64,000 nt of DNA, taken from contig JACOYR010000001.1 of assembly GCA_016181765.1 (NCBI GenBank), forward strand, positions 16,847 to 80,846, written 5' to 3'. Both the position numbers and the translations under genes were made by a program. Source of the stretch: Parcubacteria group bacterium (lineage in GTDB: Bacteria > Patescibacteriota > Patescibacteriia > UBA2169). Positions 9,340 through 54,058 of this stretch are shown one piece after another. Positions within the stretch are counted from its first letter, which is position 1; each line of letters begins with the position of its first letter. The notes below the pieces were generated by a model. The model saw only the letters and a list, made by a program, of their open reading frames with translations. It did no database searches and was not told the origin of the DNA.

Positions 9340-9411
9340 GCATTAAATGAGACGTGTTTTTTACAATTAGCGTTACAGTATTATAGCACAAAACGCGGCT
9401 TTGAGGAAAGT

Positions 9412-9473
9412 AAAAAAAGGTGTCAGGTACCTTTTTTGTTTTTTTTCTTAAAAAAGGTACCTGACACCTTTTT
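9412..9473 (-). terminator. Long-stem intrinsic terminator (15-bp stem AAGGTGTCAGGTACC/GGTACCTGACACCTT, U-run on minus strand)
   Basis: Perfect inverted repeat 9417-9431 / 9456-9470, A-run 9412-9418 on plus strand. Lies just 3' of stop of 9474..10160 gene. Confidence 0.6.
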
Positions 9474-10160
9474 TTACCCCCCGAAGAACTGCTCAATGGC
9501 GCGGGCTTTTTCCTCGCTCTCGGCCTCGCGCACCTCGTCAATGAGCTTTTGTTCGTCTTCTTTGTCCCCGGCCTGGATGCGCTTCCAGCGCTCTTCGCCC
9601 GCAAGCGATCGGATCTCGCCGATGACGCGGTGCAAATCCTGCTCCGAGAACTGGCGCGGCGCAAGCGTTACCATAAACTCCTGCTGGGTCTTTAAGATGA
9701 GCTTCTGGATGGCGGCGGGATCTTTAATCTGCCCGAGCTCCACCTTCTCAAAGCTGCCCGGGGTGAGGTACAGGGTGCCCACGTTGATCAGGTTCTGCAG
9801 GATGCCCTTGCGCCGATAGGTGACATCATATATCTTGTCCAAGTCAATCTGGGACACCATGCGGTCCAGAATGCCGTTCTGGCGGATGATGACCACGCGC
9901 TTGCTGGTGATGCCGATGATGCCGTAGTACCACCTCCGCCAGGTGCGGTAGAGCCAGAATGTCCCGGAGAGGAATAGGAGCCCCAGGAGCACGCTCCCAA
10001 GCGTGCCCCAGGTAAGGAATAAATACAGGAAAAAAAACGGCGAAAGAAAGAGGAGGAATCCGCCGATACACTGCCAAAAGTACACGAGCCAAAACTCGTG
10101 GTACACGCCGCGCACGTCCTCGTCGTCATCCAGGTTCTTGATGACTTTCCTAATATCCAT
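9474..10160 (-). CDS. Membrane protein with bacterial PH-like (YdbS/YdbT-type) domain
   Basis: Two TM helices followed by ITSKRVVIIRQNGILDRMVSQIDLDKIYDVTY motif typical of bPH_2/DUF304. Confidence 0.55.
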   Translation of the reverse strand: MDIRKVIKNLDDDEDVRGVYHEFWLVYFWQCIGGFLLFLSPFFFLYLFLTWGTLGSVLLGLLFLSGTFWLYRTWRRWYYGIIGITSKRVVIIRQNGILDRMVSQIDLDKIYDVTYRRKGILQNLINVGTLYLTPGSFEKVELGQIKDPAAIQKLILKTQQEFMVTLAPRQFSEQDLHRVIGEIRSLAGEERWKRIQAGDKEDEQKLIDEVREAESEEKARAIEQFFGG

Positions 10161-15817: not shown

Positions 15818-15939
15818 AGAAGTAAATGAACGGTTTTTGATTACAAGGGGGTATTATAGCACAAATCAAAAAACCTGTCAAGGGTCTTTGGCAGGGTGCT
15901 TTTTTAGGCTAAAAATGGGCTAAAACCACCCCCTAGCCC

Positions 15940-15975
15940 CCTCCTTGGCAAGGAGGGGGAAGTAGATAGGCAAAC
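15940..15975 (-). repeat. Palindromic repeat family copy 1 (CCCCCTCCTTGGCAAGGAGGGGG + CTAGGGGGTGG tail)
   Basis: Perfect palindrome. Followed (minus orientation) by CTAGGGGGTGG as in copies at 46113 and 53549. Confidence 0.7.
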
Positions 15976-45448: not shown

Positions 45449-46105
45449 TTAGCTCTCTTTGGGCGCGGGACTAATCGCGCCTTCTGCATCTACAACGCGG
45501 CCGTCCTCTTTTGGTTGCGCGACAGCGCCCGCCGATGAGGCGGGCATCTTCTTGTGAAGCAGGGCGGTACCGCGGGACAATAATGACTTGACGGTTCCCT
45601 CCCGCTTTCCCAAAATTGACGCAATCTCTGATATCTTTTTATCTTCAAAATACCGGAGTGATAATACTTCCTGGTATTTTTCCGGAAGTTTGCGCAGGGC
45701 CGCGTGCGCGAGCTTCCACGATTGCGCGCGCTCCAGCTCCTCTTCCTGCTCCATCAATTCCCGCGCCAGATCGCGCTCATCGGCAAGCTCAATGCCGGAT
45801 TTTTCAAGCAGGGCCTCCAGCGAGTAGTGGCGCTTTTTGGCGGCGCGGAAATACTGGTTGATTTCGTTGGTCGCGATCCGGTAGAGCCAGGATGAAATTG
45901 AGATGCCGCGCCACTTGAATTGCCACAGCCTGTCCAAGGCTTTGAAAAACGTTTCAGACGCGATGTCCTGGGCCGCATGCACGTTGCCCGTGCGCTTTAA
46001 GATGTATCCGAAAATGGGCTCATAGTACTCGTCAAAAACCGCCCCGAACGCTTGGGGGTCTTTTTGCGCTTGTGTGATGAGTTGCTTTTCTTGTTGCTTG
46101 TCCAT
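45449..46105 (-). CDS. ECF-type RNA polymerase sigma-70 factor
   Basis: Region 2 (YYEPIFGYILKRTGNVHAAQDIASETFFKA) and region 4 HTH (VLSLRYFEDKKISEIASILGKREGTVKSLLSRG). Confidence 0.8.
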   Translation of the reverse strand: MDKQQEKQLITQAQKDPQAFGAVFDEYYEPIFGYILKRTGNVHAAQDIASETFFKALDRLWQFKWRGISISSWLYRIATNEINQYFRAAKKRHYSLEALLEKSGIELADERDLARELMEQEEELERAQSWKLAHAALRKLPEKYQEVLSLRYFEDKKISEIASILGKREGTVKSLLSRGTALLHKKMPASSAGAVAQPKEDGRVVDAEGAISPAPKES

Positions 46106-46112
46106 ACAGTTC

Positions 46113-46150
46113 CCCCTCCTTTCATAAGGAGGGGGCTAGGGGGTGGTGAG
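46113..46150 (+). repeat. Palindromic repeat family copy 4 (CCCCCTCCTTtcatAAGGAGGGGG + CTAGGGGGTGG). Its arm supplies the SD (AAGGAGGGGG) 7 nt upstream of the ECF sigma start codon on the minus strand
   Basis: Minus-strand reading: CCCCCTCCTTatgaAAGGAGGGGGaactgtATG. Confidence 0.65.
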
Positions 46151-46302
46151 AGGGTCAGTCAATCAAAAATCCGCGTCTAGTATACTATAACGCGGGGGTG
46201 GCGGAAAGGTTGCATTGCGCTTTTGTGATTTTTCTGGTATAACGGAGTGGCCCAACTATTTCGGAATTTCCACCCTCCGAGCCGCAGGAGGCGGCAGACG
46301 AG

Positions 46303-46527
46303 ATGACGAAAGAAGCGCTCTTTACTGGTTTGTTCCTGGGGGGACCCGCAATCGTGTTCACGGTCTATGTGTTGATCGCGAATCCGAGCATTGATCGCGC
46401 GGTCGTGGGACTCGTGCTGTGCATGGTTTGGGCGGTTGCCTGGAACGCCACGCTCCTGTCCCCAGGGCCGTTTTCACTGCCGCCGCAACCGCACATGAGG
46501 AATACGTCGGAACAGACGTCAGAGTAG
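46303..46527 (+). CDS. Small membrane protein (74 aa)
   Basis: Two TM helices; followed by strong terminator. Confidence 0.45.
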   Translation: MTKEALFTGLFLGGPAIVFTVYVLIANPSIDRAVVGLVLCMVWAVAWNATLLSPGPFSLPPQPHMRNTSEQTSE

Positions 46528-46566
46528 CGCCCGCAAGCGCGTAACAACAACGCGCGCGTTCCACGA

Positions 46567-46607
46567 CCCCCCGCAGGCTCAACTAGCTGCGGGGGGTATT
46601 TATTTTG
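46567..46607 (+). terminator. Intrinsic terminator (10-bp GC stem CCCCCCGCAG/CTGCGGGGGG, then TATTTATTTT)
   Basis: 46567-46576 / 46587-46596. Confidence 0.65.
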
Positions 46608-46639
46608 CAAAAAAGACCACTTAAAAATACGGCAAAATA

Positions 46640-46775
46640 CGGCTCAACCCCCTCCAAAGCCCTGGGAGCCTTGCGGCTCATTTACACCATTTGAGCCGCA
46701 CCTGCGGCTCACGATGCACGGAGATGAGCCACAACCCAGAGAACCAACTCGTCGCGGCGGCAGCTGGGGCGCCGC
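46640..46775. repeat. Direct repeat A (about 100-130 nt; about 85% identical to 48805-48935). Contains internal 31-nt duplication and a decayed copy of the 3' end of a 48877..49338-like gene
   Basis: CGGCTCAACCCCCTCCAAAGCCCTGGGAGCCTTGCGGCTCA...CGATGCACGGAGATGAGCCACAACCCAGAGAACC vs copy B. Confidence 0.6.
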
Positions 46776-46786
46776 TCTCTTCGGCG

Positions 46787-47086
46787 TTATGCCAACTCTT
46801 TCATCTTGCCGGTTGAGTACTGGTGCAGAACGGACGACACCAGTGTCTGGTAGGGCAAACCCTTCTCCTGCGCCCGCACTTTCAGCGCGTGTAAATCCCG
46901 CTCCGAGATGCGGATGTTGATGTTGCGCTTCTTGATCAGCGTTGCGCGCGCGGCGGCCACGAGCTTCTGCTTTTCTTCTTCAAGATTGGGCACGCTCTTA
47001 AACTCGCCTCTGTTATAGGCGTCCAGAAGTTCCTTCTCTTCCCTATCTAATGATTCGTAATATTTTTCCTCTAGATCCTGTGGCAT
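46787..47086 (-). CDS. brnA: BrnA antitoxin (ribbon-helix-helix, CopG-like)
   Basis: 99 aa; C-terminal RISERDLHALKVRAQEKGLPYQTLVSSVLHQY RHH motif; paired with BrnT. Confidence 0.7.
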   Translation of the reverse strand: MPQDLEEKYYESLDREEKELLDAYNRGEFKSVPNLEEEKQKLVAAARATLIKKRNINIRISERDLHALKVRAQEKGLPYQTLVSSVLHQYSTGKMKELA

Positions 47087-47089
47087 AGA

Positions 47090-47386
47090 TTATCTCTTAG
47101 TGATATACTTTTTTGTCGCCTTTCGGCTTGGTATGATGGTTTTTAAAAAAATTTTCTCATCATCTTCCACATACGGAACAAGGTACGCGTATCCGCCAAC
47201 TTCCACGACGAACATTTTCTGGTTGGGATACTTTTTCTGATTCAGGTGCCGAATAATGTCCAGCACCCGTTCGTTTTTATTTAGTAGCGGAACCATGTCA
47301 TCAAAACAGACTCCATGCCGAATTCTTAATTGCGAATTTTTGTCTTTGTTCCACTGGTAATCCTTCATGTACACATAATATGACAA
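47090..47386 (-). CDS. brnT: BrnT toxin (DUF497 ribonuclease)
   Basis: 98 aa; WNKDKNSQLRIRHGVCFDDMVPL and FVVEVGGYAYLVPYVEDDEKIFLKTIIPSRKATKKY typical of BrnT. Confidence 0.7.
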   Translation of the reverse strand: MSYYVYMKDYQWNKDKNSQLRIRHGVCFDDMVPLLNKNERVLDIIRHLNQKKYPNQKMFVVEVGGYAYLVPYVEDDEKIFLKTIIPSRKATKKYITKR

Positions 47387-47602
47387 TGTCTATATTTTGT
47401 CAATACTCCTTTTCCACAACAAAAACGCACCACTGCGCGCCTCCGTGTACCCCCATCGGCTCAAATGGTGTACATGAGCCGACTTTTAGTCTGGTGGTGA
47501 GGCGACCTGGTGGGCGATAAAAGAAAACCGCCCCATCTCGCGCGTGGCAAGACAGGGCGGGTGTGCGGCGCACTAAAAACAGACAGTGCGCGAACTATGG
47601 AG

Positions 47603-48658
47603 CTACCGACCCTCCTCCTGGGAGAGCACCTCAAGACGCTCCTCTGCATCAAGCTTGGCCTGGAGCGCCTTGTCCTGTTCGCGGAGGAGCGCCATCTGCG
47701 CTTCGGTCCGCTGGCGATACAGGTACACGATTGCGGCCTTGGAACCGGCCAGCGCGGCCTCTTCCATGGACCGGGGCACACCACGCTCTTTGCGCAACCC
47801 ATTCTCGGTCAGCCGGGGAATATCCGACAGCTCCGTGCCCAGCGCCAGCTGTTCCAGCTTCAGGAAACAGGCCGTGTCAAACTCCCAGCTCTGACCAAGG
47901 AGAAGTATGATCTCGTCGAGGCTGTCCAGGATCTCAATGAACCGATCCCGGCGCGCGAACAAGAGCATCTGCATGCGGGAGTCGCGCTCCAAGATATGGC
48001 GCATGCCCGGCAGATGCGGGGCAAGTCCATGACCCCGGTACTGTTCAAACTTCCAGCCGACCTCGCACAGGTCCATGAGAAACGCGCGGACGATTCTGGG
48101 GTAGAACCCGCGCTCCGGGTGACGGTGCGGGTAGTTCCGAATCCCGCCCCCCTCGCGGCGGAAAAACCAGAGCACCTTCCGAAACACCTCGGGCACGAAG
48201 ATGTGCTCCACCCAGGCCCATGAAGGTATGGTGGGGTGCGTTTCGTGGCTCCGGAGCCGCTCGCGCGCGAACACCTCAAACGCGTCCCGAGCGATCCGCT
48301 GGCGGATTTCCGGCCAGCTCCGGCGTTCGCCAAGAAAGAACGGCCGGGAGTCCGAATGCCAGCCCAAACCGCGCTCACCTGCCCTGTTGAAGCTCCCCGT
48401 GTCGTTGTGGCCGTCAGCCACTTCCATATACAGGCAGTCGCGCTCCACCTCTTCTTCCGCGCCCGCAACCTGCATGGTGTAGCCGCCAAGAATCAGATCA
48501 CGCTTCCTGCCTGCCTCTGTGGCCGCGCCAAACTCCTGCTTCCACTCGCGCCACAAAGTCATGCTGCTGGTGACTGAAAGGAGCGGATGGTGTCCCTCTT
48601 CTCGGGCTGGTGCCGCATCTTCGTTCGTAGGTGCGTGCGTAGCCATGATGGCCTCCAC
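47603..48658 (-). CDS. Hypothetical protein, GC-rich (about 64%), His/Arg-rich
   Basis: 351 aa ORF with no competing frame. Composition deviates from neighbours. Confidence 0.5.
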   Translation of the reverse strand: MEAIMATHAPTNEDAAPAREEGHHPLLSVTSSMTLWREWKQEFGAATEAGRKRDLILGGYTMQVAGAEEEVERDCLYMEVADGHNDTGSFNRAGERGLGWHSDSRPFFLGERRSWPEIRQRIARDAFEVFARERLRSHETHPTIPSWAWVEHIFVPEVFRKVLWFFRREGGGIRNYPHRHPERGFYPRIVRAFLMDLCEVGWKFEQYRGHGLAPHLPGMRHILERDSRMQMLLFARRDRFIEILDSLDEIILLLGQSWEFDTACFLKLEQLALGTELSDIPRLTENGLRKERGVPRSMEEAALAGSKAAIVYLYRQRTEAQMALLREQDKALQAKLDAEERLEVLSQEEGR

Positions 48659-48804
48659 AAAAAAATGAACTGCATTTTACGCCGATTGACGCTCGGCGAA
48701 ACGTACCCCTAACCTACGCCCGAAACCGCATTTTGTCAATCCAAAAACCGCCCCAACGCACCCCAAAATACCCACCTCATCGGCGCCCGCCTGCCGGCGA
48801 GGCA

Positions 48805-48935
48805 GGGACAGGCGGCTCAACCCCTCCAAAGCCCCGGGGGCCTTGCGGCTCACGATGCCCGGAGATGAGCCACAGCCTAGGAAACCGGCTCGTACCGGGC
48901 ATGGCTGGCAGCGCCCACCCGCTTGAGCCGCCCGG
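48805..48935. repeat. Direct repeat B (partner of 46640-46775), overlapping stop codon and 3' UTR hairpins of 48877..49338
   Basis: See repeat A. Confidence 0.6.
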
Positions 48936-49338
48936 CGCGGACCAGCTCCGAGAGGTAGCGGGTGGCCGTGGCATCCGAGACGCGGAGCAATTTTTGCACG
49001 CCATCATTGGTGATGCTCCCCTCTGCGCGGGCGCGGGCCGCGATTTTCTCCAGCTTTGCCCGCTTGCGGAACTGGATTCTCTCCCGTGCCCGCGACAACA
49101 GCCCCCGCACTCCGCTTTCCGTGCCTGCCAGAGAGGCGGCAGGAGCTGGGGATGATGAAGTAACTGGGACCAAAGGCGGGGTTGATGGTTCAGGCGCGGC
49201 TAGCTCGGGTAGGGGTGATGGTGTGGGTACGTCCGCCGGAGAAACGGATTCGGACTGAACCACGGGTTCCACCGGCGGCACGGACGCGGCTGGCTCAACC
49301 GAGGGTTCAGGTGTAATTGCGGGAGTTTCTTGTTGCAT
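48877..49338 (-). CDS. Pro-rich protein with C-terminal winged-helix/HTH DNA-binding domain
   Basis: N-terminal PEPS-rich low complexity. C-terminal ITNDGVQKLLRVSDATATRYLSELVRAGRLKRVG HTH. Minus-strand -10 TGCTATACT at about 49390. Confidence 0.5.
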   Translation of the reverse strand: MQQETPAITPEPSVEPAASVPPVEPVVQSESVSPADVPTPSPLPELAAPEPSTPPLVPVTSSSPAPAASLAGTESGVRGLLSRARERIQFRKRAKLEKIAARARAEGSITNDGVQKLLRVSDATATRYLSELVRAGRLKRVGAASHARYEPVS

Positions 49339-49429
49339 TGATTGGATGATAGGGCAAAAAGGTACCTTTAGGCTTTCCTTATGATGTCAGTATAGCATAT
49401 CAACATTTGTACCGAGATTACTCTCTTAG

Positions 49430-49568
49430 GACTTACGCGTTTGACAGAAATAGTCGTCATTCTGGAGGCTTTGTACTCAAAGCCGATAGAATCTCCGTGA
49501 AAAACGCATAGATTCTATCGCTCAAGAGTACTTTCGCTCCAGAATGACGTCAAACGCGTAAGTCCTAT
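49430..49568. repeat. Long imperfect palindrome (about 140 nt) forming an extended hairpin at the boundary of the AT-rich island
   Basis: GGACTTACGCGTTTGAC/GTCAAACGCGTAAGTCC (17 bp), GTCATTCTGGAG/CTCCAGAATGAC (12 bp), GATAGAATCT/AGATTCTATC (10 bp), centre CCGTGAAAAACGC. Confidence 0.65.
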
Positions 49569-49570
49569 CT

Positions 49571-50221
49571 CTAACAAATTTGCACATTCCCATCGCCTAG
49601 GCACACTTGGTGCTTCAGATCCCATAATAAGTATCTAATGTAGTGAGTTTCTTCAGGCGATGATTCGCTACTCAAAAGCTTGTGTATATTTCGTGCAAAA
49701 AACTTCTTTGAATTTCTACTGGCTTGAGCGCTTGAATTTCCCTTGAGTAAGGAGATAGCCACTTGGTTTGAGGGCTCAAGGAAAAGTTCGGCCACTGTAT
49801 CTTGATGGGGGCGTGAAATCTGATGCTCATCGTACCAAAAAATAAAATCCGCATCGTACCCTATATACGAAAAAGTGCCGGACTTTACGCTTTTAGGTCC
49901 TAACTCAACTGCTGATTGACACGATAAAGCGTATACAACCCTAGATTCAAAAATATCCTCATTAACACCCGCCCGAACTAGAATCTTATCATCTTGTCCG
50001 GTGACATGACCTGGACCACCATGACCATTTATAAAAACAAATGAGGGCTTGAGCTTCTTGACTCTGCTTTCAAATTCTTTTTTATTTGCTTTCTCGCCAT
50101 GGAGATCAAATAGCCTAAATCCTTTTGCATTGATAATTTTTATTACCTTGCCAGCCCATGCAGATAAATACCGAGTTGGAATATCATGATTAGGCCTCGT
50201 CACTAAGCACGCTATACTCAT
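49571..50221 (-). CDS. Hypothetical protein with minimal caspase-like (CHAT/C14-like) His-Cys dyad; AT-rich island gene 3
   Basis: 216 aa. Hydrophobic strand plus H (PSFVFINGHGGPGH) and hydrophobic strand plus C (VVYALSCQSA) about 25 aa apart, reminiscent of the caspase/hemoglobinase fold. GC about 40% vs window about 57%. Confidence 0.5.
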   Translation of the reverse strand: MSIACLVTRPNHDIPTRYLSAWAGKVIKIINAKGFRLFDLHGEKANKKEFESRVKKLKPSFVFINGHGGPGHVTGQDDKILVRAGVNEDIFESRVVYALSCQSAVELGPKSVKSGTFSYIGYDADFIFWYDEHQISRPHQDTVAELFLEPSNQVAISLLKGNSSAQASRNSKKFFARNIHKLLSSESSPEETHYIRYLLWDLKHQVCLGDGNVQIC

Positions 50222-50474
50222 ACAGTTCGCCAGTTTTTAATGACTGCAAAAAATTCATATCAATTTCAATCATTTTTTTGCCTATCTCGTCTCCATCGCT
50301 CACATGCTGGATTAAATCATCTCTGCTAAAAGACCCCTCGCCGCCAATCGACATACTAAAACCAACAGGCATCGCACCGAGACGCGCCTTAACCAATTCT
50401 CGAACATCCTCATCACGCTCTTCCTGTTCCGTCTGTCCGCTCTGTTGTGCATTTTGTGTTTGTGTCGTACTCAT
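50190..50474 (-). CDS. Hypothetical small acidic protein; AT-rich island gene 2
   Basis: 94 aa ORF; overlaps gene 3 start by 32 nt and gene 1 stop by 4 nt. Confidence 0.45.
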   Translation of the reverse strand: MSTTQTQNAQQSGQTEQEERDEDVRELVKARLGAMPVGFSMSIGGEGSFSRDDLIQHVSDGDEIGKKMIEIDMNFLQSLKTGELYEYSVLSDEA

Positions 50475-50665
50475 ATAATTTGAAGTTCGACGAGTTTGTT
50501 AAAAATTTTTTTACCAAGCTCGGTATCATTACTGATCTCAACATAAGCAACATTCCATGTTATGGGAATGCGCCTGTCATTCTCTCGCTCAACCGTCAAG
50601 ACAATATCATCCCGAATATTAATGGGAAGGTTTGCGTAAACTTTCAAAAATCTTGCCTTGTCCAT
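50471..50665 (-). CDS. Hypothetical small protein; AT-rich island gene 1
   Basis: 64 aa ORF, first gene of the three-gene minus-strand cassette. Confidence 0.4.
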   Translation of the reverse strand: MDKARFLKVYANLPINIRDDIVLTVERENDRRIPITWNVAYVEISNDTELGKKIFNKLVELQII

Positions 50666-50928
50666 AGATCTCTAATTTCTTTTATTATACCACATTCTCA
50701 ACATTCACGCCAACACCGTACCACTCCAATCTTGGAAGGTCAAATCATTTATGTATCCCTTCCTCTTTCATCATACCACCTAAATACTTTCTATCCTATA
50801 CACGCCACTCGGCGAGGCAAGCACCAAGGCCAGCGTGCCCGCCGATGAGGTGGATGCCGAGTTTACCCGCCGGAGAGAGGCGGGCTTACCTTGATCCTCG
50901 CGAGAGGCGAGGCTGATTTGACAACTAT

Positions 50929-50957
50929 TGACTTTTTTATTAAAATATGCTATCATT
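50929..50957 (+). promoter_or_regulatory. Sigma70-type promoter (TTGACT-17-TATCAT with TGc extension) for 51005..51709
   Basis: TTGACT 50929-50934; TGCTATCAT 50949-50957; SD AAGGAG then GTG start. Confidence 0.55.
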
Positions 50958-51004
50958 ATATTCACAAAAACCAACCATAATGCACCTACACAAGGAGAAA
51001 GACA

Positions 51005-51709
51005 GTGAGCACCAAATCGCTCCAGAAGTTGTACGACGAGGGATTCTTCAAGCCCGGACACTCGGAAGCAGTAGATGAGTGCATCACAAACATCGTCTTG
51101 CTCAACACCGACCAAGTGTTCCGCACGGGAGTGCCGCGCAGGATCCCCCGCCCAGCACTCCCCGCAGAAGAATTCACGTTTCACTGGTCTCGCTTCGTGG
51201 GCGCGGTTACGGCCAACTTCCCGAACATTGAGCCGTACAACCTGACGGCCATCACCACGCTCATGGTCGCGGAGAAGCGCCACCAGGAAGAACTGTTTCT
51301 CTGCCAGCTCATCGAGGCGCTCTGCCCCAGCTGCGAGTCGATGTGCTTCCTCGGACACGCCTACTGGCACCTCGAGGATCGCTACCTCGCGCTGCAGTGC
51401 TACCAGGAAGCGCACCGCCGCAGTGAGCGCTTCTGCAAGGAGCGCAAACTCGGGCCCGACAACCCCAACTGGCTGGACGCGGGGGATTACCTCCGCTACG
51501 CCGCCGAGTGCCAGCTCGCGCTGGACATGCCCGGCGACGCCCTCACGTCGCTCGTGCGCTGCGTACAGATCTTCAAAGCAGCAGGCAAGTACGGCACCTT
51601 CAAGCGCGAGGATCTGACCAGGATCCACCGGTCCGTGATGGAAGCCGCCGGATGGAATGCCGTCGGCGATCTGTGGGAAGTTCCCACAGAAGCACCTACT
51701 GGCGCGTAG
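51005..51709 (+). CDS. Hypothetical protein (GTG start), Cys-containing, TPR-like helical repeats; GC-rich orphan between AT-rich segments
   Basis: AAGGAG SD 8 nt before GTG; followed by strong terminator. Confidence 0.55.
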   Translation: MSTKSLQKLYDEGFFKPGHSEAVDECITNIVLLNTDQVFRTGVPRRIPRPALPAEEFTFHWSRFVGAVTANFPNIEPYNLTAITTLMVAEKRHQEELFLCQLIEALCPSCESMCFLGHAYWHLEDRYLALQCYQEAHRRSERFCKERKLGPDNPNWLDAGDYLRYAAECQLALDMPGDALTSLVRCVQIFKAAGKYGTFKREDLTRIHRSVMEAAGWNAVGDLWEVPTEAPTGA

Positions 51710-51734
51710 AATCACTCAGCGCGCCACCCCCGAT

Positions 51735-51770
51735 CCCCCGCACGCTATCGCTAGGTGCGGGGGTTTTTAT
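51735..51770 (+). terminator. Intrinsic terminator (CCCCCGCAC...GTGCGGGGG then TTTTTAT)
   Basis: 9-bp GC stem. Confidence 0.65.
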
Positions 51771-51854
51771 ACAAAAACACCCCGCCGCCGGTCCGCCGCC
51801 TGCTCGCCGAGGAGGCGGGGAGAGGCGGGTTAATCTGGTCCATGATATAATAAA

Positions 51855-52313
51855 GTGCGTATGCACATAGAAATAGACCAATCCGGAAAAATTGAGCACA
51901 CCAGCAAAACCACGGTTATCGCCTACGCAAACGGCAGTTCAAGAAGCTTGCAGATAAGCGCGAGCGAAAAACAAAAACTCATACGAACGATGAAAACAAA
52001 CAGGCATCCCAAGACCACATACGTGTACACCATATTTGCAACGCTCATATTTATGCTTCTGCGCGACATGCGCGCAAGCGATTCCACAAGCGTCACCATC
52101 GACAGGGAATACCCGGGCAAAGAACCAACTATCAAAAACTTCCTGCTGCAGCTCTACCGGAAAGCCCATAAAAAATCTCCGGCCATACGGTTTGACACTA
52201 TCGGGAAGAAGAGTATGGCGCACAAAGCCGCGCTTGCGGTGTTCCAAAATAAAAAGCGCCCTGACATCATAGTCACGGCCCAAGACGCCTTACAGACGCT
52301 GTACGAGAGATAA
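51855..52313 (+). CDS. Hypothetical protein (AT-rich)
   Basis: 152 aa ORF with TM segment; followed by hairpin ATCCCGG-tccag-CCGGGAT. Confidence 0.4.
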   Translation: MRMHIEIDQSGKIEHTSKTTVIAYANGSSRSLQISASEKQKLIRTMKTNRHPKTTYVYTIFATLIFMLLRDMRASDSTSVTIDREYPGKEPTIKNFLLQLYRKAHKKSPAIRFDTIGKKSMAHKAALAVFQNKKRPDIIVTAQDALQTLYER

Positions 52314-52565
52314 AAAGGTTGGAGATCCCGGTCCAGCCGGGATAATCCTTAGCTAAGAACGCCGATTATGAACGTTGGTCACTAAGGCATCCAACCGTTG
52401 GTGGCAGTATACCACGCCTCCCGGAAAAGTCAAGCCCACGAATTGAGATGTCATTTCAGTAGTGGTGCGTTAAAAATTCAATAGAGACAAAGCATAAACC
52501 ACGCTCATCATCTCATCCTACGCTCTTGAGTACAAGAGCTTCGGACGACAGGCGGCAGAAGACTC

Positions 52566-52907
52566 TCATCCTGAAATCTTTTCAATCGTAGAAGGCACAA
52601 TATATATATCCCAATCCGACATACCGATCACATCAACAATTTCATACCTGATTTTTACCGGCAATCCAACTTTCTTGAATTCATTCGGCAATTCATAAAT
52701 AGCCGACGTATCTGAAAAAGAAAGACGTTCTTTTTTTACCGGAATACCAAGAAAGGTGCGGCTGGTTTCAATCCCCCACCAACCACCATCTTGATCTATA
52801 TACTGAATCGTTCCAACGCGCGTCTTAGTCTGCATCGGGTCTATCACCCAAAATGCCCCATACATTATCAATCCAACTATTGCAATAACCAAAATCTTTT
52901 TTATCAT
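52566..52907 (-). CDS. Hypothetical membrane-anchored protein
   Basis: 113 aa, N-terminal TM; 4-nt overlap with rarA. Confidence 0.45.
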   Translation of the reverse strand: MIKKILVIAIVGLIMYGAFWVIDPMQTKTRVGTIQYIDQDGGWWGIETSRTFLGIPVKKERLSFSDTSAIYELPNEFKKVGLPVKIRYEIVDVIGMSDWDIYIVPSTIEKISG

Positions 52908-54058
52908 AGATACTTCTTATTTTTCAACTCCTCCGGCAGAAAGCTCTCATCAGTATACTTCTCATACCCATTGCCATAACCCAGCTCCTTCATCAACCCT
53001 GTCGGCGCATTGCGGATATTGAGGGGAACCGGGAGGTTGCCGTGCTGTTTCACATCCGCTTGAGCGGCGCGCAGGGCATCATAGCTGGAGCGGTCCTTTT
53101 TGCATTGGCACAAATACGCCACTCCATGGGCGAGGTTAATGGCGCACTCCGGGTAGCCGATGGTTTCGCAGCTGCGGAACACGGCGTTGGCGACGACGAG
53201 AGCCGTGGGCGCGGCCAGGCCAATGTCCTCGCTCGCGAATATCACCATCCGGCGGGCAATAAAGAGCGGGTCCTCCCCCGCGTCCACCATGCGCGCCAAA
53301 TAGTAGATGGCGGCGTCCGGCTGGCTCGCGCGCATGCTTTTGATGAACGCGCTGATGACGTTGTAATGCTCCTCCCCTTTTTTGTCGTAACGCAAATGTT
53401 TTGATTGGAGCGCCTGTTTGAGGTTTGCGACGGTGATATCCTTGTACAGGGTTGCGGTTGCCTCCAGCATGGAGATGGCGGCGCGGGCGTCTCCGTTTGC
53501 CATGGCAATGAGCCAGTCCTTGGCATCCTGGTCCACAGAACCTCCCCTAGCCCCTCCTTGGTAAGGAGGGGAATTTAGGATGCGGTTGATGATGGAGAGC
53601 ATATCATCTTTTGTGAGCTCGTTGAGGACGAACACGCGGCAGCGTGAGAGGAGCGGGCTGATGACCTCAAAGCTCGGGTTTTCCGTGGTCGCGCCAATGA
53701 GCGTAAGCTCCCCGGTTTCAACGTAGGGCAGGAGAAAATCCTGTTGGGCCTTGTTGAAGCGGTGAATTTCGTCAAGAAACAATACTTTTGATTTTTCAGT
53801 TTCATGGCTGATGATGTGCTTGATGTCTGCTTTGCCCGCGGACACGGCAGACAGCTCAAACAGCTCCGCATCCAGGGCGCGGGCATAGATTTTGGCGAGC
53901 GTGGTTTTGCCTACACCCGGCGGGCCCCAGAGGATGAATGAAAAGAGGTGCTTTTCCTGGATGGCAACGCGCAAAGGCTTGTCCGGGCCCACAAGATGCT
54001 CTTGGCCCATGAATTCATCCAAAGACTTGGGGCGGATTTTTGAGGCAAGGGGTTCCAT
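52904..54058 (-). CDS. rarA: Replication-associated recombination protein A (RarA/MgsA AAA+ ATPase)
   Basis: Walker A GPPGVGKTT, Walker B VLFLDEIHRFNK, sensor motifs, C-terminal MgsA domain. Contains in-frame palindromic repeat insertion (see repeat copy 3). Confidence 0.85.
   Translation of the reverse strand: MEPLASKIRPKSLDEFMGQEHLVGPDKPLRVAIQEKHLFSFILWGPPGVGKTTLAKIYARALDAELFELSAVSAGKADIKHIISHETEKSKVLFLDEIHRFNKAQQDFLLPYVETGELTLIGATTENPSFEVISPLLSRCRVFVLNELTKDDMLSIINRILNSPPYQGGARGGSVDQDAKDWLIAMANGDARAAISMLEATATLYKDITVANLKQALQSKHLRYDKKGEEHYNVISAFIKSMRASQPDAAIYYLARMVDAGEDPLFIARRMVIFASEDIGLAAPTALVVANAVFRSCETIGYPECAINLAHGVAYLCQCKKDRSSYDALRAAQADVKQHGNLPVPLNIRNAPTGLMKELGYGNGYEKYTDESFLPEELKNKKYL
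53549..53585 (-). repeat. Palindromic repeat family copy 3 (CCCCTCCTTGGTAAGGAGGGG + CTAGGGGAGG), located inside rarA coding sequence in frame (encodes SPPYQGGARGG linker)
   Basis: rc reads AATTCCCCTCCTTACCAAGGAGGGGCTAGGGGAGG = ...N S P P Y Q G G A R G G... Confidence 0.65.

Follow-up and report, generated by a model that had tools for sequence, protein, structure and literature searches.

What lies behind the 3′ end of a small regulator gene, and how it came there, is the question raised by two imperfect direct repeats, A and B, within a 64-kb stretch of DNA (the window) on a 334,869-bp contig from a metagenome-assembled genome of the Parcubacteria group of the candidate phyla radiation (CPR; Patescibacteria). 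The repeats flank 2.1 kb that carries a brnTA-like toxin–antitoxin pair and a GC-rich gene, and repeat B covers the end of a gene for a winged helix–turn–helix (wHTH) protein. We find the repeats to belong to a hairpin element that seems not to have been described, occurs across CPR bacteria, is tied to one wHTH gene and brackets variable modules. CPR bacteria have tiny genomes with few recognizable mobile elements, and their exchange of defence and addiction genes is poorly understood. We put the chance at about one in two that a trans-acting recombinase uses the element as a recombination or attachment site, in a manner that would resemble dif modules and integron cassettes without belonging to either class.

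Anatomy of the repeats

The initial annotation, made from the letters of the window, had proposed that direct repeats flank the segment. Local alignment confirms them: of 100 aligned bases 88 match and 12 differ, and there are four indels, one of 31 nt and three that are small. A repeat scan recovers two blocks of the same pair, 55 nt at 84% identity (46703–46757 against 48844–48898) and 32 nt at 94% identity (46649–46680 against 48821–48852). A 30-nt core pattern, allowing at most three mismatches, matches A and B only in the 64 kb and matches none of 100 shuffles. The parts of the repeats, and the related hairpin between them, are as follows.

46640–46773, minus strand: repeat A, the distal and complete copy, with tail, hairpins hp1 and hp2, and the decayed end of the wHTH gene
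46640–46673: tail of A, of which the minus strand reads GGGGGTTGAGCCG
46674–46698: hp1 of A, matched by a model built from other genomes (41.1 bits, E = 5e-9)
46703–46733: hp2 of A
46736–46773: decayed last ~13 codons of the wHTH gene in A
47457–47481, inverted relative to hp1 of A: middle copy of hp1, CGGCTCA-AATGGTGTACA-TGAGCCG, 25 nt, 96% complementary (same model, 25.8 bits, E = 7e-5)
48813–48915, minus strand: repeat B, the proximal copy in use, with tail (48813–48843), hp2 (48844–48874) and the functional codons and stop (48877–48915); no hp1
48877–49338, minus strand: wHTH gene, 153 amino acids (aa), the anchor of the element

Repeat B covers the stop and the last 13 codons of the wHTH gene. 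In A the same stretch can be read in register, as Arg-Asp-Glu-Leu-Val-Leu-Trp against Arg-Tyr-Glu-Pro-Val-Ser-stop in B; the stop TAG of B is TGG in A (46736–46738), and weaker homology extends over about 13 codons, as the initial annotation had described. The C terminus encoded under B is canonical for a large protein family (..G....RYEP..), which argues that the coding part of B is native and that B holds the copy in use. The order hp2, hp1, tail in A is also the native order of the 3′ flank in homologous loci (L004, L019 and L025). The sequence comparison thus supports reading A as a displaced and decayed copy of the 3′ end of the wHTH gene together with its 3′ flank. Similarity between A and B is lost directly past TTGAGCCG. 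The 12 mismatches are of mixed types, and the open reading frames (ORFs) of the surrounding island that were scanned have no Pfam or NCBIfam match to a reverse transcriptase; a diversity-generating retroelement was rejected on these grounds.

The 31 nt present in A and absent from B had been taken for an internal tandem duplication. They are instead a hairpin, CGGCTCA-TTTACACCATT-TGAGCCG, and the repeated part is only the 9 nt TGCGGCTCA that bound them. Repeats at both edges fit a deletion between them, by which B would most simply have lost hp1.

Two transcription units and a third copy

Upstream of brnT, the middle copy of hp1 lies inverted with respect to that of A, so that 25-nt inverted repeats bracket brnTA. 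The cargo between A and B comprises the following features.

46787–47086, minus strand: brnA-like antitoxin gene, 99 aa
47090–47386, minus strand: brnT-like toxin gene, 98 aa from a TTG start (92 aa from 47368 in public assemblies)
47375–47403, minus strand: promoter-like site of brnTA, TTGACA-17-TATTAT, 11 of 12 matches
47528–47560, minus strand: intrinsic-terminator-like hairpin of the 347-aa gene, a 14-bp stem followed by TTTTCTTTT
47603–48646, minus strand: 347-aa gene of an uncharacterized CPR protein family

Read along the minus strand, the order is wHTH gene, B, 347-aa gene with its terminator, middle hp1, brnTA promoter, brnT, brnA and A. The middle hp1 lies between terminator and promoter, exactly at a step in GC content from 0.39 to 0.61. 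The GC content is 39% in brnT, 52% in brnA, 63% in the 347-aa gene and 65% in the wHTH gene, against 56% in the window, and the steps fall at element copies; these values support the view that what separates A from B is accessory DNA of foreign composition. It had been proposed as a candidate islet or duplication scar. With a terminator of the 347-aa gene, a promoter of brnTA and a third hairpin between them it is not one islet; the 2.1 kb are two independent transcription units set off by three element copies.

The gene order wHTH, 347-aa gene, brnT, brnA is identical in Logan assemblies from at least eight sequencing runs that cover the locus, and an arrangement seen in so many independent runs is no assembly artefact. 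Chance or artefact as the source of the repeats was rejected on the core pattern and on the agreement of these runs.

Inverted hp1 copies around brnTA raise the possibility of an invertible switch, in which 46674–46698 and 47457–47481 would end a 0.8-kb segment that flips brnTA, the likeness of A and B being secondary. The 25-nt repeats, 96% complementary, do bracket brnTA exactly; second sites in other loci are mostly inverted pairs, and a distant subgroup of the gene family has 31-nt inverted repeats around its wHTH-coding part. However, all assemblies, from at least eight samples, hold a single orientation, homologous modules have the same orientation in related loci (L018/L037 and L023/L030), and no invertase was found. 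Moreover, the segment includes the brnTA promoter, and an inversion would leave brnTA unswitched. We consider a switch highly improbable.

A conserved element at the end of one gene family

The repeats were compared with 76 non-redundant metagenomic loci that carry a homologue of the wHTH gene (491 kb; some tests used 80 or 83 such loci). These contain 89 hairpins of the form GGCTCA-N9-15-TGAGCC, against 0.1 in shuffled sequence. At least one occurs in 66 of the 76 loci and at least two in 21; 80 of the 89 lie between −600 and +1,000 nt of the wHTH stop codon, and in 37 loci the hairpin is at the stop itself. The core is GGCTCA, a loop of 11–12 nt and TGAGCC, often with extra GGCTCA or TGAGCC hexamers beside it. 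The loop is nearly invariant, AATGGTG[G/T]AAA or A[AT][TC]GGTGGGAAT, the latter also written A[AT][TC]GGTGGGAA[T]. Three to four stem pairs outside the hexamers, which played no part in the selection of sites, covary: 91.7% are paired against 79% in shuffles, with 67 double changes against 27, and none of 500 shuffles reaches the observed value. One locus (L004) has a compensatory stem, GACTCA/TGAGTC. The element is thus a conserved composite palindromic DNA element at, or just past, the stop codon of a single family of small wHTH genes in CPR bacteria.

A covariance model of the element, trained on other genomes only and containing no sequence of the window, was searched against the whole window with filters off. 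It matches hp1 of A, the middle hp1 and, at 17 bits, hp2 of B, and nothing else. These matches all lie at 46.6–48.9 kb, and a common genome-wide intergenic repeat, an alternative named in the initial annotation, was rejected for the 64-kb window.

Relative to the wHTH gene, the loop at first sites is forward in 19 cases and reverse in 14. Among close relatives it is flipped between identical flanks (L040 and L043 against L052), and the loop of A in the window is likewise flipped relative to L019 and L004. An RNA-level element of the 3′ untranslated region is unlikely given a loop in both orientations and modules that carry their own terminator and promoter; the element appears to act at the level of DNA. 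Between 46 and 53 kb, Rfam gave no match at its gathering score and none at the looser E ≤ 5, and a known RNA family was rejected accordingly. Full-text literature searches returned no description of the element in CPR bacteria.

The element and its gene overlap. The conserved Tyr-Glu-Pro codons (TAT GAG CCn) themselves make a TGAGCC arm, and in some loci the ORF runs on through the hairpin (..EPVSGSNGGN-stop). The family is very large in CPR bacteria, with more than 200 relatives scored and at least 440 confirmed stretches in JGI metagenomes; the protein of the window is identical to the deposited HYT31_00345. No wHTH homologue was found in IMG/VR viral contigs, and the 49 matches to the hairpin pattern there carry unrelated loops. 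A phage origin was rejected on both counts.

Several features of the family were observed in passing. Large ORFs of about 450–1,020 aa recur 1–6 kb upstream of wHTH homologues (L015, L018, L028, L033, L037, L038, L060 and L085) and read, from their sequences, as probable subunits of type I restriction–modification systems, which suggests that the wHTH gene tends to sit in regions resembling defence islands. A distant subgroup, with the C terminus ..VSYS[RK][IM]-stop, has a conserved RNA-like element after the gene, GGGAGT..GCGCACGGGTGG..GGGGCAAGCAC..CCGCTAGGGCGTC, seen at L090 6380–6790, L047 6324–6560 and about 15 other loci, with an inverted partial copy some 300 nt on; it has no Rfam family at gathering score, only weak matches at chance level. 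Also in this subgroup are paired 31-nt inverted repeats, GAACGGCTCAAATACCAGTAAATGAGCCGTT (L090 5996–6026 and 6673–6705; similar in L051, L061, L068, L072, L077, L083 and L087). One member of the pair lies within the Pro-rich linker of the wHTH ORF and one downstream, with the wHTH-coding part and the RNA-like element between them. The segment that they bound is a candidate intragenic invertible segment.

Element copies as module boundaries

Where a second copy of the element is present, it lies 0.2–4.7 kb from the first, mostly just past the final gene in a group that shares the orientation of the wHTH gene. The genes so bracketed differ between loci.

L040: a Z1-domain protein and a C-5 cytosine methylase (Dcm), between direct hp1 copies with a repeated flank of ~40 nt
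L028: gene sets with a macro-domain gene and a uracil-DNA-glycosylase-like gene, with a further copy dividing them; the distal copy carries the gene-end codons in inverted orientation
L018, L024, L030 and L037: genes of unknown function between the copies

Judged by the loop, inverted pairs predominate among these second sites. Judged by their flanks, L024, L030, L040 and A of the window are direct repeats that include the 3′-end codons of the wHTH gene, with flipped loops in L024 and L030. Distal copies that carry these codons (A of the window, L024 and L030) match the pattern left when an attachment site is duplicated.

Neighbourhood clustering of the wHTH loci shows that downstream gene content is not conserved and is rich in restriction–modification and other accessory genes; it identified neither a conserved partner gene nor a conserved recombinase. 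Related loci lose their homology at the element: in L058 and L066 it is confined to a 478-nt block at 90% identity, made up of the wHTH gene and the hairpin, and 41 of 74 pairwise alignments stop within 10 nt of the distal end of the hairpin.

A possible recombination site served in trans

We hypothesize that a recombinase, working in trans and encoded outside the segment, links self-contained accessory modules to the chromosome at the distal side of a TGAGCC arm. Each event would leave a copy of the element at both sides of the module, such that modules stack behind the wHTH gene. The window would contain two stacked modules, one made of the 347-aa gene and its terminator, the other of brnTA and its promoter. 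The displaced 13-codon gene end, now in decay, would survive in the distal copy A, and B would afterwards have lost hp1 by deletion between the 9-nt repeats. The hairpin itself may be parsed as inverted arms of 8–9 bp (GGCTCAA[A/T]) around an asymmetric core of 6–8 bp (GGTGG[G]), which would be the geometry of a tyrosine-recombinase core site. That recombination takes place at the element, and which enzyme performs it, are the parts of this scheme that we infer.

Several observations weigh against recombination at the element. Pfam found no recombinase in the segment or in 20 other ORFs of the window, and tblastn with the tyrosine and serine recombinases of L080, L068 and L005 found none in the window; among 83 wHTH loci searched, only 7 have a recombinase within 6 kb. 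No excision, inversion or alternative junction was found in Logan contigs from at least eight samples. Searches for one and the same module in more than one context gave none, and the island genes of the window were found in none of 80 wHTH loci, so that no cargo is seen twice. A clean pair of empty and occupied sites was not obtained, as L040, L043 and L052 all differ downstream. In L018, L028, L042 and L050 the gene-end codons are inverted at the distal copy, an arrangement that simple integration cannot make. The hairpin survey used the strict pattern on loci that had been picked by wHTH similarity and had flanks of 6 kb; alignment ends at the hairpin could partly reflect the ordinary fast divergence of intergenic DNA; and the hexamers beside a gene for a MarR/ArsR-like DNA binder could be its operators.

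The last point leads to the main rival, which we hold to be unlikely. In an AlphaFold2 model, the wHTH protein is predicted to combine a winged helix of MarR/ArsR type with a long helix and a disordered, Pro-rich N terminus, and the model matches MarR, CadC and ArsR-type regulators in Foldseek. With such a fold the protein could plausibly bind the hexamers, perhaps acting as an operator protein or else as an accessory factor. The rival holds that the hexamers, especially in the everted form TGAGCC-N7-GGCTCA, bind the wHTH protein for regulation, insulation or nucleoid organization; A would be a scar of local duplication or a wrecked second wHTH copy, and the genes would have gathered by illegitimate recombination in a hotspot, with no dedicated site-specific recombination. 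The predicted fold is of the type found in dimeric operator-binding regulators, the sites cluster around the gene whose product could read them, and they occur in either orientation, as double-stranded DNA sites would. Followed in the direction of transcription, B comes before one module and the middle copy before the other, about 55 nt from the brnTA promoter. The lack of a recombinase fits as well, and so does the genomic slot described below, which is a hotspot even where the element is missing (the related genome L009 holds an AbrB/Doc pair there and no hairpins). Yet the promoter region of the wHTH gene itself (49339–49430) has no hexamer pair, and no minus-strand gene has A upstream. Covariation of the outer stem points to pairing as a hairpin or cruciform, which a plain operator does not need, and symmetric half-sites leave the invariant, asymmetric centre of 11–12 nt unexplained. 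Sharp breaks of homology at 90% identity (L058/L066) and cargo bracketed in many lineages would be unexpected for an operator.

Recombinase genes near some of the homologues raise a second alternative, a classical island. Large serine recombinases lie near the wHTH gene in L005, L055, L068 and L069, being 0.6–0.9 kb downstream of it in the first three, and Xer-like tyrosine recombinases lie near it (1.5–3 kb) in L043, L052 and L080. On this account, an integrase-borne islet entered the 3′ end of the wHTH gene, much as islands enter tRNA genes, and later lost its integrase by deletion, A and B are fossil attL and attR sites, and the hairpin family is incidental. The direct repeats do hold a gene 3′ end, the distal copy is decayed, the GC content of the cargo differs, and the serine recombinases just downstream of the three homologues count in its favour. 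But neither Pfam nor tblastn with the L080, L068 and L005 recombinases revealed an integrase or a remnant, the segment consists of two units that are independent of each other and are separated by a third copy of the site, and the element brackets cargo in many lineages that have no integrases. Direct repeats of ~100 nt are, moreover, not produced by serine-integrase integration. A classical island is therefore improbable. The initial annotation had seen here the trace of integration into, or duplication of, a gene 3′ end. The displaced, decayed 3′ end and the foreign cargo bear this out in part; the repeat, however, is a conserved palindromic element, the wHTH gene sits inside a larger island, and no integrase was found in the segment or among the window ORFs tested.

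Cargo genes

The GC-rich gene between the repeats had been annotated as a 351-aa orphan. It is a real gene, with coding-type periodicity (GC content of 68%, 44% and 76% at the three codon positions), although its start is most likely the ATG at 48646, which gives 347 aa and matches the deposited Parcubacteria protein HYT31_00340, to which the product is identical. It is no orphan: an exhaustive search found about 234 family representatives with full-length matches at E ≤ 1e-3, the named ones from Parcubacteria and Patescibacteria. Word-indexed searches returned only the protein itself and one other, and the family surfaced by exhaustive search alone. The protein has no Pfam, NCBIfam or PDB-sequence match. 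Its AlphaFold2 model (predicted local distance difference test score, 88.9) is mostly α-helical with one β-hairpin, and the best Foldseek match in the PDB has E = 0.17, which is no fold match. The lack of family and PDB-sequence matches, together with a confident helical model that resembles no known structure, led us to reject the idea that the protein might be a hidden recombinase. Within the family (P0122–P0270 compared), the motifs HPL, LLHxGF, ADGH, KAFxVL, PSW, LWFFR and KLEELAL are conserved. Many members lie on contigs hardly longer than the gene (1–1.6 kb), and in L010 a homologue adjoins a methylase/HNH/Vsr cluster.

The two genes of the proposed BrnT/BrnA pair fare differently against Pfam. 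The antitoxin is above the Pfam cut-off for CopG_antitoxin (PF12441; E = 3.4e-7, 31.3 bits against 28) and matches BrnA_antitoxin at E = 0.0026. The toxin matches BrnT_toxin (PF04365) over its full length (E = 8e-5), at 23.3 bits and so below the cut-off of 34.5. The gene brnT precedes brnA with a gap of 3 nt, and the toxin-first order is typical of brnTA.

The surrounding island

The whole finding lies within a larger variable region.

46106–52903, no strand assigned: variable GC-mosaic island between the σ70 gene (45449–46105) and mgsA (52904–54058)

Genes of the island range from 37% to 65% GC, around the window mean given above. The closest syntenic genome, CG10_46_32 (L009), has an RNase J that is 76% identical and keeps the order RNase J, 281-aa gene, σ70 and mgsA; by tblastx synteny, the gap between σ70 and mgsA is 1.3 kb in L009 and 6.8 kb in the window. 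None of the island genes was found in L009, the wHTH gene included, nor was any hairpin of the element type. L009 therefore offers neither a matching arrangement that lacks A nor a site that is cleanly empty. At L009 7493–8119, the slot between σ70 and mgsA holds genes for an AbrB/SpoVT-like protein (77 aa) and a Doc/Fic-like protein (129 aa) that look toxin–antitoxin-like from their sequences. A different pair of this kind in the same slot suggests that it is a recurrent landing place for addiction modules. The 2.1-kb segment and the wHTH gene thus lie within a larger GC-mosaic island, and the slot that this island occupies is a hotspot of the lineage.

Other palindromes were seen in the window. 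At 49427–49567, directly after the stop of a 216-aa ORF (49571) and upstream of the wHTH gene, is a 141-nt imperfect palindrome with perfect outer arms of 19 nt, TAGGACTTACGCGTTTGAC. It has no second copy in the window, and of six distinct Logan contigs that extend this far, five, each from a different run, break off inside it at about 49456. The palindrome CCCTCCTT-N3-4-AAGGAGGG occurs three times (15939–15957, 46114–46133 and 53552–53570; none expected). One copy is just upstream of the σ70 start, and another adds about 11 codons (ILNSPPYQGGARGGS) in frame to mgsA when compared with L009. At 9410–9477, a perfect 28-nt inverted repeat (GTAAAAAAAGGTGTCAGGTACCTTTTTT and its complement) with a 12-nt spacer is probably a bidirectional terminator.

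Significance

A site that marks accessory modules would give a sequence handle on the variable gene pool of CPR bacteria in metagenomes, and would explain why assemblies fragment in these regions. It would also indicate a testable recombination system and suggest a function for a widespread, uncharacterized wHTH protein. If the hexamers are instead bound by that protein, the result would show which DNA a very common regulator of CPR bacteria probably targets.

Comparison with known systems

Among systems with comparable parts, repetitive extragenic palindromes (REP), with their BIME and REPIN arrangements and RAYT transposases, share short palindromes with conserved stems that occur in both orientations, often as inverted pairs around a gene. 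The CPR element differs in that it is not dispersed (one locus in 64 kb, and within ~1 kb of the wHTH gene elsewhere), has no HUH transposase and has a conserved loop. Islands in the 3′ ends of tRNA, transfer-messenger RNA and protein genes likewise leave the target 3′ end as direct repeats, with a decaying distal copy and stacked units. Here, by contrast, there is no integrase at the edge, the units are tiny (0.8–1.3 kb), and the target is a protein gene with a conserved palindromic 3′ flank.

Integron arrays with attC sites such as the Vibrio repeats (VCRs), and clusters of attC sites lacking an integrase (CALIN), are alike in their co-oriented genes with imperfect palindromes of ~50–130 nt after each, in repeats that are ~85–95% alike within an array, in cargo of toxin–antitoxin pairs and genes of unknown function, and in cassettes that carry no recombinase. 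We know of no integron reported in CPR bacteria. A true integron fragment here would be an attC cluster without a nearby integrase, recombined by an IntI from elsewhere. Genes at the locus do lie in one orientation with an imperfect palindrome after each, a toxin–antitoxin pair makes up one of the cassettes, and the terminal GCTCAAC and GTTGAGC fit the consensus RYYYAAC/GTTRRRY, which in attC sites marks the ends (R″ and R′) of a single imperfect hairpin of 57–141 nt. On the minus strand of B, GCTCAAG and GTTGAGC, 121 nt apart, pair in the minimum-free-energy fold as a terminal stem of 10–12 bp. However, the inside of that fold is branched and its energy unexceptional (z = −1.3), and A has no R″-like partner. 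There is no intI in the ORFs tested, no IntI or attI accompanies the element, and, whereas integron cassettes are promoterless and lie in one orientation, these modules have their own promoter and terminator and the site flips, as the inverted hp1 shows. The loop is conserved in sequence, and the junction is past the TTGAGCC motif rather than inside it: homology between A and B passes through TTGAGCCG, where an attC crossover (G|TT) would have stopped it before TT. We regard an integron fragment as scarcely credible.

Closest in layout are the dif modules of Acinetobacter plasmids, which use the host XerC and XerD. Their sites are 28 bp long, with an 11-6-11 arrangement for XerC and XerD, and inverse orientation of neighbouring sites is common (PMC6449649). 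The modules are alike in being 0.8 to a few kb long, in often being toxin–antitoxin pairs and in having no recombinase of their own, and the short sites are alike in having two inverted arms around an asymmetric centre. The inverted hp1 pair matches this layout, since between its 96% complementary sites brnTA contributes only a toxin and an antitoxin. Unlike the plasmid site, hp1 is not a 28-bp 11-6-11 site, and we see in it no likeness to dif sequences; the element extends into a covarying stem and extra hexamers, is chromosomal, belongs to CPR bacteria and sits always on one wHTH gene. Nor is it at a GC-skew switch, and a chromosomal dif site at the terminus was rejected because the window has none. 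An Xer-like gene is near only three of the 76 non-redundant loci. Phage_integrase matches none of the 32 window ORFs scanned against Pfam, and the verified tyrosine recombinase of L080 gave no tblastn match in the window.

It is possible, at somewhat less than even odds, that these parts make up a CPR cassette-capture system that has not been described before. Accessory and defence modules, among them toxin–antitoxin and restriction–modification-like ones, would be inserted, stacked and possibly inverted in trans at a palindromic site of ~25–60 bp on the 3′ end of a ubiquitous wHTH gene, perhaps by the host Xer recombinase with the wHTH protein as an accessory factor. Such a system would do the work of integrons and dif modules with parts unrelated to theirs.

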